Source: Pseudomonadota bacterium (lineage in GTDB: Bacteria; Pseudomonadota; Alphaproteobacteria; Rhizobiales; JACESI01). Taken from it: a stretch of 63,317 nt of DNA. A program made the position numbers and the translations under genes. The stretch spans positions 1 to 63,317 of the forward strand of contig JBCDCU010000002.1 of assembly GCA_039181265.1 (NCBI GenBank), written 5' to 3'. Position 1 is the stretch's first letter, and each line of letters opens with the position of its first letter. Under the pieces are notes generated by a model. The model was not told the DNA's origin. It saw nothing but the letters and a program-made list of their open reading frames with translations, and searched no databases. Below, in pieces: positions 23,533 through 28,791 of the stretch.

Positions 23533-25125
23533 CTAACCCGCGAGATCAGCCCAGCTTAAATCGTATTTCTCAAGGTACTTCCTGAGCCGGTCGGCATCGT
23601 TGCGGCTCGTCTTGGTGGCGCGCGACGCTGAAAACAAAGTTCGACCGGCAGCGCTCAGGGATTTGCTCGCCCGGCAGATCCGGATCACAAGAGCAAGCTG
23701 CACCTTGTCGAAAGGATCGACGTTCTCTGCTTTCGTCCCAAGATAGCGCCGGGCAAGTTTGTCGTCCTTATCGTCTTCCGCGCTTTCCCACTGGTGCTTT
23801 AGAAACGCGATCTCGTGTTCAACCATCTGGGCGGTGATGCGGGCGCGGGGTGCGAGCGTACAAAGCCTCTGCAGAGATGCGCCGAGGTCGCGGAAATTGC
23901 CGAGCCATCTGGTGGCGGGGTCGGTCGCAAAGCGAATGTAGATCTGAAGCGCATCGGCATTAAAGCCGACACGATTGCCGAGCATGCGTTCGGCACGACG
24001 CAATTCGAATTCGATATTGGGCGCGATATCCTCGCGCCGGTCGCATAGCGACGGGAGCTCGAACGTCCATAGGTTCAGGCGGGCGAATAAATCGGCGCGG
24101 AACTTTCCTCTCGCAACAAGCGTGCTGAGGCTGCGGTTTGCGCCGGCTATCAGTTGAAACTTGCTGGTGATTTCATGGTCGGAGCCGAGCGGAAAGAATT
24201 TACCGGTTTCAATGGCGTGCAGGATCATCGCCTGCTCATCGAGGCCGAGCTCGTCGATCTCATCGAGGAACAAGACCCCGCCATCGGCCTCTCTCAAGAG
24301 ACCCCGGCGATCGTTCGGTGCGCCTGCCATCGCGCCGCGCCTGTGGCCGAACAAGGTCGACATGGCCCGTTCGCCTTTGAGCGTCGAGCAGTTCACATGG
24401 ACAAATCGGCCTTTCACCCGGCGGCGCTGGAGTTTGAGTTCATAAATCCGCTCGGCAAGTTCCGACTTTCCGGTTCCCGTAGAACCGAGGAGAAGAAGCG
24501 GTGCATCGCTTGTGGTTGAGACAAGTTCGATGCGCTCGATCAAAGCGTTGAAGCCTGCGTTCTTCGTGTCGATGCCGGATTTTAAGAGCGCGGTGTAATC
24601 ATCCGTCAGTTGATCGAAACGCTGCTGCAGCGCGTTATATTTGGAAAGGTCCAGATCGACGATATTGATCTCGCCGGTGATATCCTCATCCTCTTCCTGA
24701 CCCTTGATCCTGCGGGGCGGCGAGGTCTGCAACAACCGCGCGGGGATATGCCGGGATTCCGTCAACAGGAACCAGCAGATCTGCGCCACATGCGTGCCGG
24801 TCGTGAGATGAACGTGATATTCCTCGCGGTCCTCGTCGAAGCCATAGCCGCGGGCAAAATCGAACAAAGCGCCGTAGACTTCCTGGAAATCCCAGGGATC
24901 GCGCAGGTCGATCCGCTGCAACAAGACTTCGGTTGCCGCCTGATCTTCTTCGATCTCCCGCTTCAGGGAATGCGCGAGCTGGGAGAATTTCTGGTCGTAG
25001 AGGAGCTCCAGACGTTCGACTGGAAAGTCGACATGCTGAGTGAGCGCAATGGAGGGCCGCCAGCGGCGTTTTTTGCCAGCGTCCAGTTGCGTGCCCATAA
25101 ACCCTATAACGACGTTCTTCTTCAT
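23533..25125 (-). CDS. rtcR: RtcR, a CARF-domain AAA+ enhancer-binding-type regulator of the RNA-repair operon
   Basis: It is collinear with my recollection of E. coli RtcR: VIGFMGTQLD...RWRPSIAL, HLTTGTHVAQICWFLLTESRHIPARLLQTSPP, and DLDLSKYNALQQRF. The Walker A motif is GSTGTGKS. The C-terminus reads CRASKSLSAAGRTLF...NDADRLRKYL. Confidence 0.9.
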   Translation of the reverse strand: MKKNVVIGFMGTQLDAGKKRRWRPSIALTQHVDFPVERLELLYDQKFSQLAHSLKREIEEDQAATEVLLQRIDLRDPWDFQEVYGALFDFARGYGFDEDREEYHVHLTTGTHVAQICWFLLTESRHIPARLLQTSPPRRIKGQEEDEDITGEINIVDLDLSKYNALQQRFDQLTDDYTALLKSGIDTKNAGFNALIERIELVSTTSDAPLLLLGSTGTGKSELAERIYELKLQRRRVKGRFVHVNCSTLKGERAMSTLFGHRRGAMAGAPNDRRGLLREADGGVLFLDEIDELGLDEQAMILHAIETGKFFPLGSDHEITSKFQLIAGANRSLSTLVARGKFRADLFARLNLWTFELPSLCDRREDIAPNIEFELRRAERMLGNRVGFNADALQIYIRFATDPATRWLGNFRDLGASLQRLCTLAPRARITAQMVEHEIAFLKHQWESAEDDKDDKLARRYLGTKAENVDPFDKVQLALVIRICRASKSLSAAGRTLFSASRATKTSRNDADRLRKYLEKYDLSWADLAG

Positions 25126-25296
25126 GTCCTATCCAATAGAATAAAACTCTATAAAAAAGAATAAGATATTTCGTTTCGATTCTTGTGAAATAAAGAAAAG
25201 GGAAGAAAAACCAATAACTTATTGGATTGCGATTTTTTCTTTTTCCTGATCCCGGTTTCGCCGAAACTCGGGGCGTACAAACGAAGGAACAAGAAA

Positions 25297-26853
25297 ATGG
25301 CAAACAAATCCGTGTTTGCGTCGCTTCGAGGCCGGATGCTCCCGAAAGCTGATGCAGTCAACAAAATGGGGGCTCCGGCCTTTGCATATGAGGACCGGCA
25401 TAAACTCGCGCAACTGGCAATGACGGGTACACTGAGCGATTTGTATTATCAAGATGCTCAGCTTGAACTCGACACTGTGCTGGACGTCGCGGAGACAGTC
25501 GAACCGGAATTTCTCGCAAAGGCCGCAATTCACACCCGTGAAAAGGGTCATATGAAAGATATGCCGGCACTCTTGCTGGCGGTCCTGGCATCCCGTGACA
25601 AGCACTTGTTTGCGCGGGCTTTCCCAAGGATCGTGACGAACGGCAAGATGCTGCGCACTTTCGTGCAGATCATGCGCTCAGGTCAAACCGGCCGCAAGTC
25701 CTTGGGTACACGCCCGAAGGCACTTGTTGCCGGCTGGTTGAACGCTGCTTCTGACCGGCAGATCCTTGAAGCATCGATTGGTAACGATCCGTCTTTGGCA
25801 GATGTCATCAAGATTGTTCACCCGAAACCCGGTAACGCAGAGCGCGATGCTTTGTTTGCCTGGGCAATCGGAAAGCCATGCGATATCGCAAAGCTGCCGG
25901 AGGCGCTGCAAGACTATCTCGCCTACAAGGAAAACGGCGAGGGCTCTTTGCCGGATGTCCCGTTCCAGATGCTGACGCATCTGCCATTGTCGGTCGAGGA
26001 TTGGGCAAAGATTGCCCGCAGCGGAAGCTGGCAGATGGTGCGCATGAACCTCAACACGTTTGAGCGCCATGGTGTCTTTGGCATCGAGGGTATGACGGAG
26101 ACAATTGCGGCGATCCTGTGCGATCCGGCTCGCATCAAAAAGGCGCGGGTCTTCCCGTACCAGTTGATGACGGCCTACCAGTCGCTTTCTGCGGATATCC
26201 CTGCAGAAATCAGGGATGCTTTGCATGATGCAATGGAAATCGCCGTTGCGAACGTGCCGAAGATCAAGGGCAGGCTTGTTGTGTGTCCGGATGTTTCCGG
26301 CTCCATGCTGTCTCCGGTCACCGGATACCGCAGGGGCGCGACAACGGCGACCACGTTCGTGGATATCGCTGCACTGGTTGCGGCTGCCTTCTTGCGGCGC
26401 AATCGCAAGACTGAGGTTCTGCCGTTCGAGTTCAGGGTTCGCTCTGCGAAACTTGAAGCGCGCGACACGATCCTGACGAATGCGAAGCGCCTGGCAGGTC
26501 TTGCTGGTGGTGGAACGAACTGTTCCGCACCGCTGGAATGGTTGAACGAGCGCAAGGAAGTACCGGATCTGGTGGTCTTTGTATCGGACAACCAGTCCTG
26601 GGCGGATGCAGGCCAGAGCGTCCTGTCAACGCCGATGATGCAGAACTGGCAGAAGCTGAAAGCGCGGAACCCGCGTGCCAAACTGGTCTGTATCGATATC
26701 GCACCATACGGCACGACGCAGGCGTTAATCCGCAACGATGTCTTGAACATCGGCGGGTTTTCCGACGCGGTGTTCGATCAGATCGCAGCCTTCGCCGAAG
26801 ATCGGCACGGCCCGGAGCAATGGGTCGGTGAGATCGAGGCAATCGAGATCTGA
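25297..26853 (+). CDS. rsr: Ro60 ortholog Rsr (TROVE domain plus C-terminal vWA-like domain)
   Basis: The ATG at 25297 follows AAGGAA. The protein begins MANKSVFASLRG...NKMGAPAFAYEDRHKLAQLAMTGTLSDLYYQ. A vWA-like MIDAS motif is present (VCPDVSGSM). The position between rtcR and rtcB matches the known rsr locus layout. Confidence 0.9.
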   Translation: MANKSVFASLRGRMLPKADAVNKMGAPAFAYEDRHKLAQLAMTGTLSDLYYQDAQLELDTVLDVAETVEPEFLAKAAIHTREKGHMKDMPALLLAVLASRDKHLFARAFPRIVTNGKMLRTFVQIMRSGQTGRKSLGTRPKALVAGWLNAASDRQILEASIGNDPSLADVIKIVHPKPGNAERDALFAWAIGKPCDIAKLPEALQDYLAYKENGEGSLPDVPFQMLTHLPLSVEDWAKIARSGSWQMVRMNLNTFERHGVFGIEGMTETIAAILCDPARIKKARVFPYQLMTAYQSLSADIPAEIRDALHDAMEIAVANVPKIKGRLVVCPDVSGSMLSPVTGYRRGATTATTFVDIAALVAAAFLRRNRKTEVLPFEFRVRSAKLEARDTILTNAKRLAGLAGGGTNCSAPLEWLNERKEVPDLVVFVSDNQSWADAGQSVLSTPMMQNWQKLKARNPRAKLVCIDIAPYGTTQALIRNDVLNIGGFSDAVFDQIAAFAEDRHGPEQWVGEIEAIEI

Positions 26854-26911
26854 CGCAACAAGGAACCGGGAGCGGGTCGTGTGATCCGCTCCCAAGTAAG
26901 AAACAGAATTC

Positions 26912-26979
26912 TCCCGGTGAATGCCGATGGAACTCCATCCTTTTGATACCAACGTTTCATCGAAACCTTGTCACCGGGA
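26912..26979 (+). ncRNA. Y-RNA-like module 1 (short, YrlB-like stem-loop)
   Basis: A 9-bp closing helix pairs TCCCGGTGA (26912-26920) with TCACCGGGA (26971-26979). Inside it are two small hairpins (GATGG/CCATC and GTTTC/GAAAC). The flanking motifs GAATGCC and ACCTTGTC are shared with module 2. The true 5' and 3' ends are unknown. Confidence 0.55.
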
Positions 26980-27000
26980 CCAACTTGAAAGGGATTCTTT

Positions 27001-27133
27001 CCGGGCGAATGCCTGCAGAACTACATCGACTTCTAATCGCCAGGTCGCGGGTTCGAATCCCGCCACTGCCGCCATTATTGCAGTGTAGCTCAGTGGTAGA
27101 GCAGGAACGTTTTGCAAATACCTTGTCGCCCGA
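27001..27133 (+). ncRNA. Y-RNA-like module 2 (YrlA-like) enclosing a circularly permuted tRNA-like domain
   Basis: The closing helix pairs CGGGCGA (27002-27008) with TCGCCCG (27126-27132). Inside are three tRNA-like elements. The first is a T-arm, GCGGG-TTCGAAT-CCCGC (27047-27063). The second is an acceptor-like hairpin, CACTGC-cgccattatt-GCAGTG (27064-27085), which includes a CCA. The third is a D-arm, GCTC-AGTGGTA-GAGC (27088-27102). The order T-arm, acceptor, D-arm is the permutation expected for YrlA-type RNAs. Confidence 0.7.
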
Positions 27134-27184
27134 CAAGACCCCAACAAGCATGAAGGGATGCGAGCAGGATTACAGGTAGACGCA

Positions 27185-27290
27185 GTCCATTCCAGGCGAA
27201 TGGATGGCTGAGGGTAAAACCAAAAAGCGTGCTGGTTCAAATCCAGCCCGGATCGATCCCGAAAGGGATGAGCCGGTGGCGGAATTTTCA
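27185..27290 (+). ncRNA. Possible third structured RNA element (second T-arm-like hairpin plus GNRA-capped hairpin)
   Basis: Three hairpins are present: TCCATTC-caggc-GAATGGA (27187-27205), GCTGG-TTCAAAT-CCAGC (27231-27247) and ATCCC-GAAA-GGGAT (27255-27268). No D-arm partner was found, so the boundaries and identity are uncertain. Confidence 0.35.
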
Positions 27291-27315
27291 TCTTGCTCAT
27301 CACTTGCCCTTCACG

Positions 27316-27357
27316 GTGCGGGCGGCAAACGTGGCGCCCGCACTCGAAATTTTCGAG
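27316..27357 (+). terminator. GC-rich hairpin plus T-containing tail between the Y-RNA region and rtcB (terminator or attenuator candidate)
   Basis: A 9-bp stem pairs GTGCGGGCG (27316-27324) with CGCCCGCAC (27335-27343). It is followed by TCGAAATTTTCGAG. The U-tract is interrupted, so it is likely leaky if it is functional. Confidence 0.4.
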
Positions 27358-27375
27358 GGTTTAAGGAAAAGACCA

Positions 27376-28791
27376 ATGACTGAAGAGAACAAAGAAACAC
27401 TCACAAGCGACATCCTGGCTTCTTGGGGCCATATTCCGGGTAAAGCCTTCGGCGCAGCCCTGCGTGATGGTGCGCAAGCGCTTGAAGCGGGAAAGTCATT
27501 GGCCGAAGTGCGTGAGCTTCTTGAACCCTATAAACCGGCGCCGGTCCTTCCATTGGAAGCGAGCGGAGAAAAGCCGTTTCAGGTCAACATCGAAGCCGAC
27601 AGTTTCGATGAGGAAGAAAACATCATCAATGTCAAAGAGCATATGACGGAGCTGATGCGCACGCCGACGATTGAAACGGGCGCGATTATGCCGGATGCCT
27701 GTCCTGCAGGTCCGCTTGGAACCATTCCGGTCGGCGGCGTTGTCGCTGCCCGAAATGCCATCCATCCGGGTATGCACTCAGCGGATATCTGCTGTTCTGT
27801 GATGATCTCCAATCTCGGCAAGGTTGACCCGAAAAGCGTTCTCGATGCAGCGCAGTCCGTCACCCATTTCGGGCCGGGCGGGCGTAAACAGGGCCAGCGG
27901 TTCACTGTGAGCCAGAAGCTTGTCGATGCGTTTCGGGAAAACCGGTTTCTGGCAAACCCGAAGATCCAGCGCATGATGCATGAGCATATGGGGACGCAGG
28001 GCGACGGCAATCATTTCCTGTTTGTCGGTAAATCCCGCAAGACAGGGGATACTTGCATTGTGACCCATCACGGTTCCCGTGGACCGGGGGCAGGGCTCTA
28101 CAAGCTTGGGATGGATGTCGCGAACCGGCATCGCCGGACCTTGTCGCCGGAAACCCTGAAGCAGAACGCCTGGATTCCGGCCGATTCAGAAGATGGGGTC
28201 GACTATTGGGAAGCCTTGCAGCTTGTCCGCAAATGGACGAAGGCGAACCATACGGGCATCCATCAGGCAACTGTTGAGGCGGTTGGTGCGGACTTGGCGG
28301 ATCGCTATTGGAACGAGCACAATTTCGTCTTCAAGCGGGGTGATCTTTTCTATCATGGAAAGGGTGCGACACCGGCCTGGGATGATTTTGCGGCCGATGC
28401 AACCGGCTTGACGCTGATCCCGCTCAATATGTCCGAGCCGGTTCTCGTCGTGAAAGGCAAGGACGCCAAGCATGGTCTTGGCTTCAGCCCGCATGGCGCA
28501 GGCCGGAACTTCTCGCGCTCCGAGCACAAACGGCGGAACAGCTCGCTGACGCCGAAGGAGATGTTGAAGATGGAAACGGACGGACTGGATATCCGGTTCT
28601 TCGAAGACAAGATCGACATTTCCGAATTGCCGTCAGGCTATAAGAATGCGGAGTCCGTCGTTCGTCAGATCGACAAATTCGCGCTCGCAGACGTGGAAGA
28701 TTACATCGATCCCTACGGATGCATTATGGCGGGCGACATCGAACCCTTCTGGAAGACACAGAAGGACAAAACCAAAGGTGCGCGGCGCTGA
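27376..28791 (+). CDS. rtcB: RNA ligase RtcB
   Basis: The ATG at 27376 follows AAGGAAAAG. RtcB-type motifs are present: MPDAC..G..G, GDGNHFLF, HHGSRGPG, HGKGAT and SPHGAGRN. The listed GTG start at 27229 would translate through the T-arm-like RNA element and is rejected. Confidence 0.9.
   Translation: MTEENKETLTSDILASWGHIPGKAFGAALRDGAQALEAGKSLAEVRELLEPYKPAPVLPLEASGEKPFQVNIEADSFDEEENIINVKEHMTELMRTPTIETGAIMPDACPAGPLGTIPVGGVVAARNAIHPGMHSADICCSVMISNLGKVDPKSVLDAAQSVTHFGPGGRKQGQRFTVSQKLVDAFRENRFLANPKIQRMMHEHMGTQGDGNHFLFVGKSRKTGDTCIVTHHGSRGPGAGLYKLGMDVANRHRRTLSPETLKQNAWIPADSEDGVDYWEALQLVRKWTKANHTGIHQATVEAVGADLADRYWNEHNFVFKRGDLFYHGKGATPAWDDFAADATGLTLIPLNMSEPVLVVKGKDAKHGLGFSPHGAGRNFSRSEHKRRNSSLTPKEMLKMETDGLDIRFFEDKIDISELPSGYKNAESVVRQIDKFALADVEDYIDPYGCIMAGDIEPFWKTQKDKTKGARR

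Follow-up and report, generated by a model that had tools for sequence, protein, structure and literature searches.

Three Y RNA-like modules, one of them a tRNA cloverleaf opened in the D-loop, in the rsr-rtcB spacer of an alphaproteobacterium

Bacterial particles of Ro60 and Y RNA are thought to tether the Ro ring to partners via the variable end of the Y RNA. To our knowledge, PNPase of Deinococcus is the only such partner identified. That Y RNAs can stand in tandem beside rsr, the gene of the Ro60 orthologue, is known in principle: at least two occur in each species studied. YrlA has been described in Salmonella Typhimurium and Mycobacterium smegmatis (Chen et al. 2014, PMC4201824), and its structure was reported by Wang et al. 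2018 (10.1101/312249). In both Salmonella and M. smegmatis, Rsr binds a second RNA, YrlB (Chen et al. 2013/2014); its homologues were found only within S. enterica by Chen et al. (PMC4201824). A sequence near the 5’ end of Y RNAs, GNCGAAN0-1G, was proposed as the contact with Rsr (Chen et al. 2014, PMC4201824). In Salmonella the genes form an rsr-yrlBA-rtcBA operon (PMC7790460). Here we analyse a locus with the same layout, minus rtcA, in a 63,317-nucleotide (nt) stretch of DNA from a Rhizobiales bacterium (contig JBCDCU010000002.1), referred to as the window. The order of genes, identified with Pfam, is rtcR (divergent), rsr, a gap of 522 nt, and rtcB. We consider it probable that the gap holds three Y RNA genes in tandem, which are co-transcribed with rsr and rtcB and then excised.

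The handle and the minimal module 1

The three modules are on the plus strand, at most 460 nt from the rsr stop codon. They share a handle that, by analogy with the Y RNAs of Salmonella, M. smegmatis and Deinococcus, would serve as docking site of the Rsr ring. This handle consists of a closing helix (H1), a conserved asymmetric internal loop (GAAUGC in the 5’ strand, CUUGU in the 3’ strand), a second helix (H2) and an ACUACA-type motif. In modules 1 and 2 the 5’ strands of the handle are CCCGGTGAATGCC (from 26913) and CCGGGCGAATGCC (from 27001), and the 3’ strands ACCTTGTCACCGGG (ending at 26978) and ACCTTGTCGCCCG (ending at 27132). The 5’ strands of these helices differ in two positions, each with a complementary change in the 3’ strand: C26915-G26976 of module 1 corresponds to G27003-C27131 of module 2, and T26918-A26973 to C27006-G27128. 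An initial annotation, made from the letters of the window, had described these compensatory changes and had recognized two paralogous Y RNA-like stems. All elements named there were found, and the shared stem covaries strongly over 27 minimal modules, which upholds the paralogous stems. In these 27 modules GAAUG (5’) and UGUC (3’) are invariant; this flank coincides with the proposed Rsr contact motif of Chen et al. 2014 (PMC4201824).

Eighty loci with relatives of Rsr (L001-L080) were drawn from a genome collection by Rsr similarity. The closest (L001, 92% identity) belongs to a marine metagenome-assembled genome (MAG); the next (75-80%) are from Rhizobiaceae and Hyphomicrobiales MAGs, Hoeflea and Methyloligella, and the more distant ones from Rhizobium species, Oxalobacteraceae and some enterics. 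Nearly all these relatives carry multiple handle-bearing modules in tandem 3’ of rsr. A covariance model of the handle (R1), built from the 27 minimal modules, was run on both strands of 81 sources (769 kb) with a cut-off of E ≤ 0.01. It gave 219 matches, every one on the rsr strand and just 3’ of rsr. Within the window only 26910-26981 (73.8 bits, module 1) and 26998-27136 (47.6 bits, module 2) were found. A search of the plasmid collection gave a single match of 123 nt, a distant one to a YrlA of Rhizobium phaseoli.

Module 1 (26913-26978, plus strand) is a minimal YrlB-like candidate Y RNA, delimited by its fold, by R1 and by covariation of its family. H1 pairs 26913-26920 with 26971-26978 (8 base pairs, bp). 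It is followed by the internal loop AAUGC // AAACCUUG, by the 9-bp H2 (26925-26933 with 26953-26961, CGAUGGAAC with GUUUCAUCG) and by a pyrimidine-rich apical loop of 20 nt, UCCAUCCUUUUGAUACCAAC. The fold has a z-score of -3.76, and none of 200 shuffled sequences folded as well. Covariation was tested by counting paired cells in a MAFFT alignment and comparing the count with 500 shuffles and with slid controls. In the module 1 family (27 sequences) 93.7% of the cells are paired and 14 of the 17 pairs show compensatory changes on both sides; no shuffle reached this value (0/500), and the slid controls gave 33-58%. The family adjoins rsr in alpha-, beta- and gammaproteobacteria. No Rfam match was obtained for module 1 at E ≤ 10. 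Its form is that of the YrlB type, a long hairpin beside rsr with the handle motif and a small pyrimidine-rich loop, distinct from YrlA, and this hairpin would be the first of three effector ends.

A local alternative exists within 26925-26939, where GAUGG (26926-26930) can pair with CCAUC (26935-26939) to form a small hairpin that rivals H2. The minimum-energy fold chooses this hairpin; the centroid structure and the covariation favour H2.

The tRNA-like modules 2 and 3

An Rfam scan of the whole window gave one match above threshold, YrlA (RF02553), at 27002-27135 of the plus strand. It covers the full model (1-114) and scores 71.6 bits, above the gathering score of 69; E, calculated for the whole window, is 1.8e-14. 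The initial annotation had read this region (module 2) as a transfer RNA (tRNA)-like domain of the YrlA type, opened at the anticodon stem, and had suggested the Rfam YrlA covariance scan as a check; the match confirms that reading. The elements follow each other in the order of YrlA: a T-arm (GCGGG-TTCGAAT-CCCGC, 27047-27063), a sealed acceptor stem (CACTGC...GCAGTG, 27064-27085), U8-A9 (27086-27087) and a D-arm (GCTC-AGTGGTA-GAGC, 27088-27102), closed by an anticodon-like stem. The Rsr contact motif is present as GGCGAAUG at 27004-27011, and the module lies on the strand of the Ro60/TROVE gene within the 4 kb used by Chen et al. 2014. Module 2 is an RNA of a kind already known, and would provide the second effector end, a YrlA tRNA mimic whose sealed acceptor loop encodes a discriminator base and CCA.

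The acceptor hairpin of module 2 reads CACUGCC-G-CCA-UUAU-U-GCAGUG, with G-CCA at 27071-27074, that is, discriminator and CCA occupy tRNA positions 73-76. CCA was found at positions 74-76 in 49 of the 93 YrlA-type modules of L001-L080, spread over 44 of 66 loci, as against 0-12 modules at neighbouring offsets. The acceptor stem is at least 7 bp long in 44 of these 49; usually CCA comes after a 7-bp stem and is followed by a linker of 4-6 nt. RNase P cleavage and a CCA end have been reported only for the YrlA of M. smegmatis, and the cleavage was attributed to its 7-bp stem, unique among the three YrlA RNAs studied (PMC4201824; 10.1101/312249). The YrlA of the window differs in having 6 bp and a C.U mismatch (C27070.U27079), and it encodes CCA; in L001 the seventh pair is intact. 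On sequence grounds, these data suggest that cleavage by RNase P and a 3’ end like that of tRNA may be common in YrlA and not specific to M. smegmatis. With the conserved encoded CCA, it becomes possible to test in many species whether RNase P cleaves YrlA and, perhaps, whether YrlA is aminoacylated.

The initial annotation had counted two Y-like modules and had left a second T-arm-like hairpin and a GAAA-capped hairpin as loose extras. The spacer holds three modules, and the two hairpins are the T-arm (27231-27247) and the sealed acceptor stem (27248-27276) of the third, at 27152-27312 of the plus strand. This module was delimited by its fold, by RNAalifold, by pair counts and by a second covariance model (R2). 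Homologues of the two hairpins are present in L001, L004, L006, L007, L009, L011, L014 and L015. RNAalifold, run on seven sequences, enclosed both elements in two further helices, and a run with 27 sequences agreed. Folding of 27150-27314 alone gave the comparative structure as the minimum-energy fold (z = -2.82). H1 pairs GAAGGG (27152-27157) with CCCUUC (27307-27312) and H2 pairs GAGCAGGAU (27162-27170) with AUCUUGCUC (27290-27298). Inside the handle, UACA is followed by GG (G18 G19, 27175-27176), the 3’ strand of the D-stem (CGC, 27181-27183), a hairpin at the position of the anticodon arm (27185-27205, 8-bp stem and 5-nt loop), a long variable arm (27206-27228) and U48 (27230). After the T-arm and the acceptor hairpin come U8 G9 (27277-27278), the 5’ strand of the D-stem (GCG, 27279-27281) and A14 A15 (27283-27284). 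The inner order is thus GG-U-AGACGC, hairpin, second hairpin, T-arm, sealed acceptor hairpin, U-G-GCGG-A-A, and therefore that of a tRNA opened in the D-loop. It is not the arm order of YrlA: the D-stem is assembled from two distant strands (27181-27183 with 27279-27281), and a hairpin occupies the place of the anticodon arm. Because this hairpin has a 5-nt loop on an 8-bp stem (tetraloops in relatives), module 3 cannot decode.

R2, the model of the module 3 class, recognized the homologues in two loci outside its training set, L015 (80.5 bits) and L014 (72.6 bits). Weaker relatives in Rhizobium, Massilia and others were matched as well. Their canonical halves are GG(N)UAGAGC on the 5’ side and UAGCUCAG on the 3’ side, with a hairpin, AGGUC as class-I variable loop, a T-arm and an acceptor stem capped by a tetraloop between them; these canonical split halves settle the opening in the D-loop. 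In homologues of module 3 the halves are seen as TAGAGC / TAGCTCAG. The class pattern was defined as handle, GG-N-AGA(C)GC, hairpin, variable region, T-arm, sealed acceptor hairpin, U-R-GC(U/G)(C/G)-A-R, handle. Module 3 of the window and 45 other instances in 33 loci, all 46 selected by a regular expression on U8 and A14, keep the split halves. The class stands beside classical YrlA in alpha-, beta- and gammaproteobacteria.

In the module 3 family (27 members, plain MAFFT) 93.3% of the cells are paired, with compensatory changes in 28 of 34 pairs; none of 500 shuffles reached this, and slid controls gave 33-52%. Positions that make tertiary contacts in tRNA behave accordingly. GG is present at the place of G18-G19 in 45 of the 46 instances. 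N15:N48, the Levitt pair, is A:U in all nine members of the window clade and G:C in 36 of the other 37, the single exception being of ambiguous parsing. Position 9 tracks the 12-23 pair, with G9 accompanying G12-C23 and A9 accompanying U12-A23. Because the Levitt pair, the relation of position 9 to 12-23 and G18-G19 are conserved or covary, module 3 is proposed to adopt a tRNA-like L-shape. Our tentative suggestion is that the D-loop-opened class is an undescribed Y RNA, an L-shaped permuted cloverleaf, and that RNase P cleaves many YrlAs of proteobacteria, giving two-piece tRNA mimics that end in CCA. If this were true, such two-piece mimics might be chargeable.

The class is not captured by the Rfam YrlA model. 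Module 3 of the window scored 15.2 bits (E = 4.4) and a canonical Rhizobium member 33 bits, both with the alignment out of register. No tRNA gene was detected in the window by ARAGORN, and the Rfam tRNA model gave just a chimeric match of 19 bits in which the D-arm of module 2 was joined to the T-arm of module 3.

Larger sets of modules occur in Rhizobium loci (L029:5637-6330, L076:5633-6430 and others), where five or six different handle-bearing modules follow each other in a fixed order: a YrlA, variants with only a T-arm or only a D-arm, one or two modules opened in the D-loop, and a short module. The first YrlA of these loci falls below the Rfam gathering threshold (61.6 bits in L029).

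Operon context and alternative explanations

In the mechanism that we propose, the three Y RNA genes would be transcribed together with rsr and rtcB from an operon controlled by RtcR, and the Y RNAs would then be cut from the precursor. Module 3, a D-loop-opened tRNA mimic with an altered but paired handle, would supply the third effector end, and the three ends may connect Rsr to different partners or mimic tRNA. Co-transcription, processing and this tethering are suggested by analogy with the described systems.

Several observations weigh against the array of three Y RNA genes, or limit the support for it. The covariation statistics include related sequences, since all loci were collected via Rsr similarity. 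The GNCGAAN0-1G motif is based on few tested RNAs, and only module 2 has it in full. Module 1 carries GGUGAAUG, with U in place of the C of the motif; in its 27 relatives this position is U, C or G, each with a matching partner. Module 3 carries AAGGGAUG, which departs from the motif in three of eight positions. In the window clade AAGGGAUG replaces GGCGAAUG in this handle, and because every change is compensated on the 3’ strand, the helix is kept while the proposed Rsr-contact sequence is altered. (An earlier description of the module 3 handle as having lost one base per strand was dropped, the 27-sequence alignment showing compensated substitutions.) In the AT-rich rtcR-rsr intergenic region (25126-25296) no sigma-54 promoter (GG-N10-GC) was seen upstream of rsr on inspection by eye. 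None of the RNA sequencing runs queried with the window spacer carries it; one coral metatranscriptome, a micro-RNA sequencing run, contained 7% of its words. Three pieces of the array of Rhizobium pisi (L076) match exactly contigs of one plant metatranscriptome, with ends that are not resolvable and a possible origin from DNA.

A first alternative is that module 2 is the sole functional Y RNA, modules 1 and 3 being decaying duplicates or a spacer structure for RNase processing. The shared handle makes tandem duplication evident, modules 1 and 3 stay below the Rfam YrlA threshold, and the canonical GNCGAA sequence has been lost in module 3. Decaying copies, however, are not expected to keep tRNA-type tertiary covariation, as module 3 does. 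The families of modules 1 and 3 have been kept over alpha-, beta- and gammaproteobacteria with compensatory changes in nearly every helix, and the altered handle of module 3 is fully paired in five lineages of the window clade, and we regard this alternative as unlikely. Somewhat less probable still is a cis-acting leader of rtcB, in which the tRNA-like folds and a hairpin preceding rtcB would sense a ligand, for instance a damaged tRNA or a protein, and regulate rtcB at the level of read-through or of translation. This GC-rich hairpin (27316-27343, plus strand; fold of 27300-27375, z = -3.28), already noticed in the initial annotation, stands between module 3 and the ribosome binding site (RBS) of rtcB, just 5’ of the latter, and is followed by AAAUUUU; moreover, tRNA-like RNAs have been proposed in the leaders of RtcB operons without Ro (as cited in 10.1101/312249). 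Yet the hairpin lacks a proper U tract and no terminator was called at 27316-27343 by the terminator scan. Its sequence is not conserved, L011 having a different GC hairpin without a U run at this place. In relatives the modules vary in number and order and are parted from rtcB by tRNA genes, further modules or an open reading frame (ORF), and therefore they track rsr and not the start of rtcB. Probably the hairpin marks a boundary, stabilises the mRNA piece left by excision of the Y RNAs, or acts as a weak attenuator.

We give very little credence to the third alternative, that module 3 is a degenerate tRNA gene or pseudogene, a remnant of those tRNA genes which in relatives stand 3’ of YrlA. 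It draws on the tRNA-Pro(UGG) gene found at the equivalent place, directly 3’ of YrlA, whose T-loop is identical to that of module 3 (GGTTCAAATCC). Against such an origin, ARAGORN detects no tRNA, the order of elements is permuted so that the halves of the D-stem lie at the two extremities, and a loop seals the acceptor stem. Module 3 is, furthermore, enclosed by the covarying H1/H2 handle common to the Y modules, and it coexists with the tRNA-Pro gene in L006, L007 and L009. An array of three Y RNA genes remains the reading that we prefer.

Of the protein genes, rtcR (23533-25125, minus strand) was identified by the Pfam families RtcR and Sigma54_activat and is divergent from rsr. The rsr gene (25297-26853, plus strand) has the Pfam domains vWA_Ro60 (1e-15) and TROVE. 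Its start is most likely ATG 25297 rather than TTG 25222 of the ORF list, because the RBS GAAGGAA precedes the former. For rtcB (27376-28791, plus strand; Pfam RtcB, 1.4e-33; RBS AAGGAAAAG at 27363-27371) an ORF beginning at GTG 27229 is present, to which the initial annotation had objected as it would run through the RNA elements. The objection was borne out. The N-termini of RtcB from L001, L011 and annotated R. phaseoli begin to align at the residue of ATG 27376, and the first 49 codons from 27229 have no counterpart in RtcB homologues. Judged from these alignments, ATG 27376 is the true start; in annotation the rtcB start should be moved from 27229 to 27376 and the spacer entered as three non-coding RNA genes. 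The Pfam RtcB match (117 bits) covers residues 196-450 only and leaves the N-terminal 190 or so residues uncovered. The protein is of a divergent type that also occurs in Rhizobium; the locus lacks rtcA.

Directly 3’ of the rsr stop codon another GC-rich hairpin, GGGAGCGG / CCGCTCCC, lies at 26868-26893 of the plus strand. The same hairpin (GGAAGCGG...CCGCTTCC) is found at this place in L001-L009 and L011, with the consensus GGRAGCGG...CCGCUYCC; conservation extends to the sequence of the stem. A U tract is absent, and the terminator scan made no call here. Once the Y RNAs have been excised, the hairpin probably bounds or stabilises the 3’ end of the rsr message; a part in processing or 3’ protection is possible. 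A purine-rich GAAAGGA-like motif of the spacer was dropped as a candidate, being weakly enriched (20% versus a background of 10.6%).

Genuine tRNA genes stand inside the rsr...rtcB arrays of several relatives (L003:6229-6563, L004:6103-6345, L013:5830-6064, L015:5962-7011, also L002, L006-L009 and L014). There tRNA-Pro(UGG) is directly 3’ of YrlA, and then come tRNAs for Asn, His, Gln or Lys. The array of L015 has ten tRNAs, that of the window none. In L003, rsr is followed in turn by four Y modules, four tRNAs, a small ORF, YrlA, rtcB and RlaP. In an operon induced by broken tRNAs, such genes could be replacement copies.

Comparison with described Y RNAs and permuted tRNAs

The array offers concrete RNAs for pull-down experiments, one RtcR/RtcB repair operon routinely carrying several effector ends. 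It includes a second, differently permuted tRNA mimic that the Rfam YrlA model misses, and imitation of a whole tRNA in more than one way would fit an operon induced by broken tRNAs. We found no description of the D-loop-opened class or of a conserved encoded CCA in the publications consulted, and a prior description is possible.

Module 1 stands between rsr and yrlA, as does YrlB in the rsr-yrlBA-rtcBA operon of Salmonella. The likeness is one of form and position, the sequences of Salmonella and M. smegmatis YrlB being outside the comparison. Whereas the YrlB homologues found by Chen et al. were confined to S. enterica, the module 1 family spans three proteobacterial classes. Module 2 shares with YrlA (RF02553) the full-length match, the rsr strand, the GGCGAAUG motif, the order of the arms and G15:C48. 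Module 3 has in common with YrlA the handle, the T-arm, the sealed acceptor stem and the genomic context. It differs in the point of opening: YrlA is opened at the anticodon stem, module 3 in the D-loop, so that a hairpin at the anticodon place and a long variable arm are kept.

The Yrn1 and Yrn2 RNAs of Deinococcus radiodurans also lie beside rsr; they are bound by Rsr and are often polycistronic with a tRNA. In content Yrn1 is like module 3, having a T-arm, a hairpin like an anticodon arm and only partial D-arm features. However, in Yrn1 the D-arm and the T-arm stand in the normal tRNA order and the Ro stem replaces the acceptor stem (PMC4201824), whereas module 3 has a sealed acceptor stem and ends in the D-loop. 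The handle sequence of Yrn1 is metazoan-like and differs from that of module 3. Circularly permuted tRNA genes are known from red algae and from some archaea (Soma et al. 2007, cited in 10.1101/312249). They are like module 3 in that the genomic 5’ and 3’ ends of the cloverleaf lie inside a loop and that a closed loop initially joins the two strands of the acceptor stem; unlike module 3, they give precursors which, once circularised, are reopened to yield working tRNAs.

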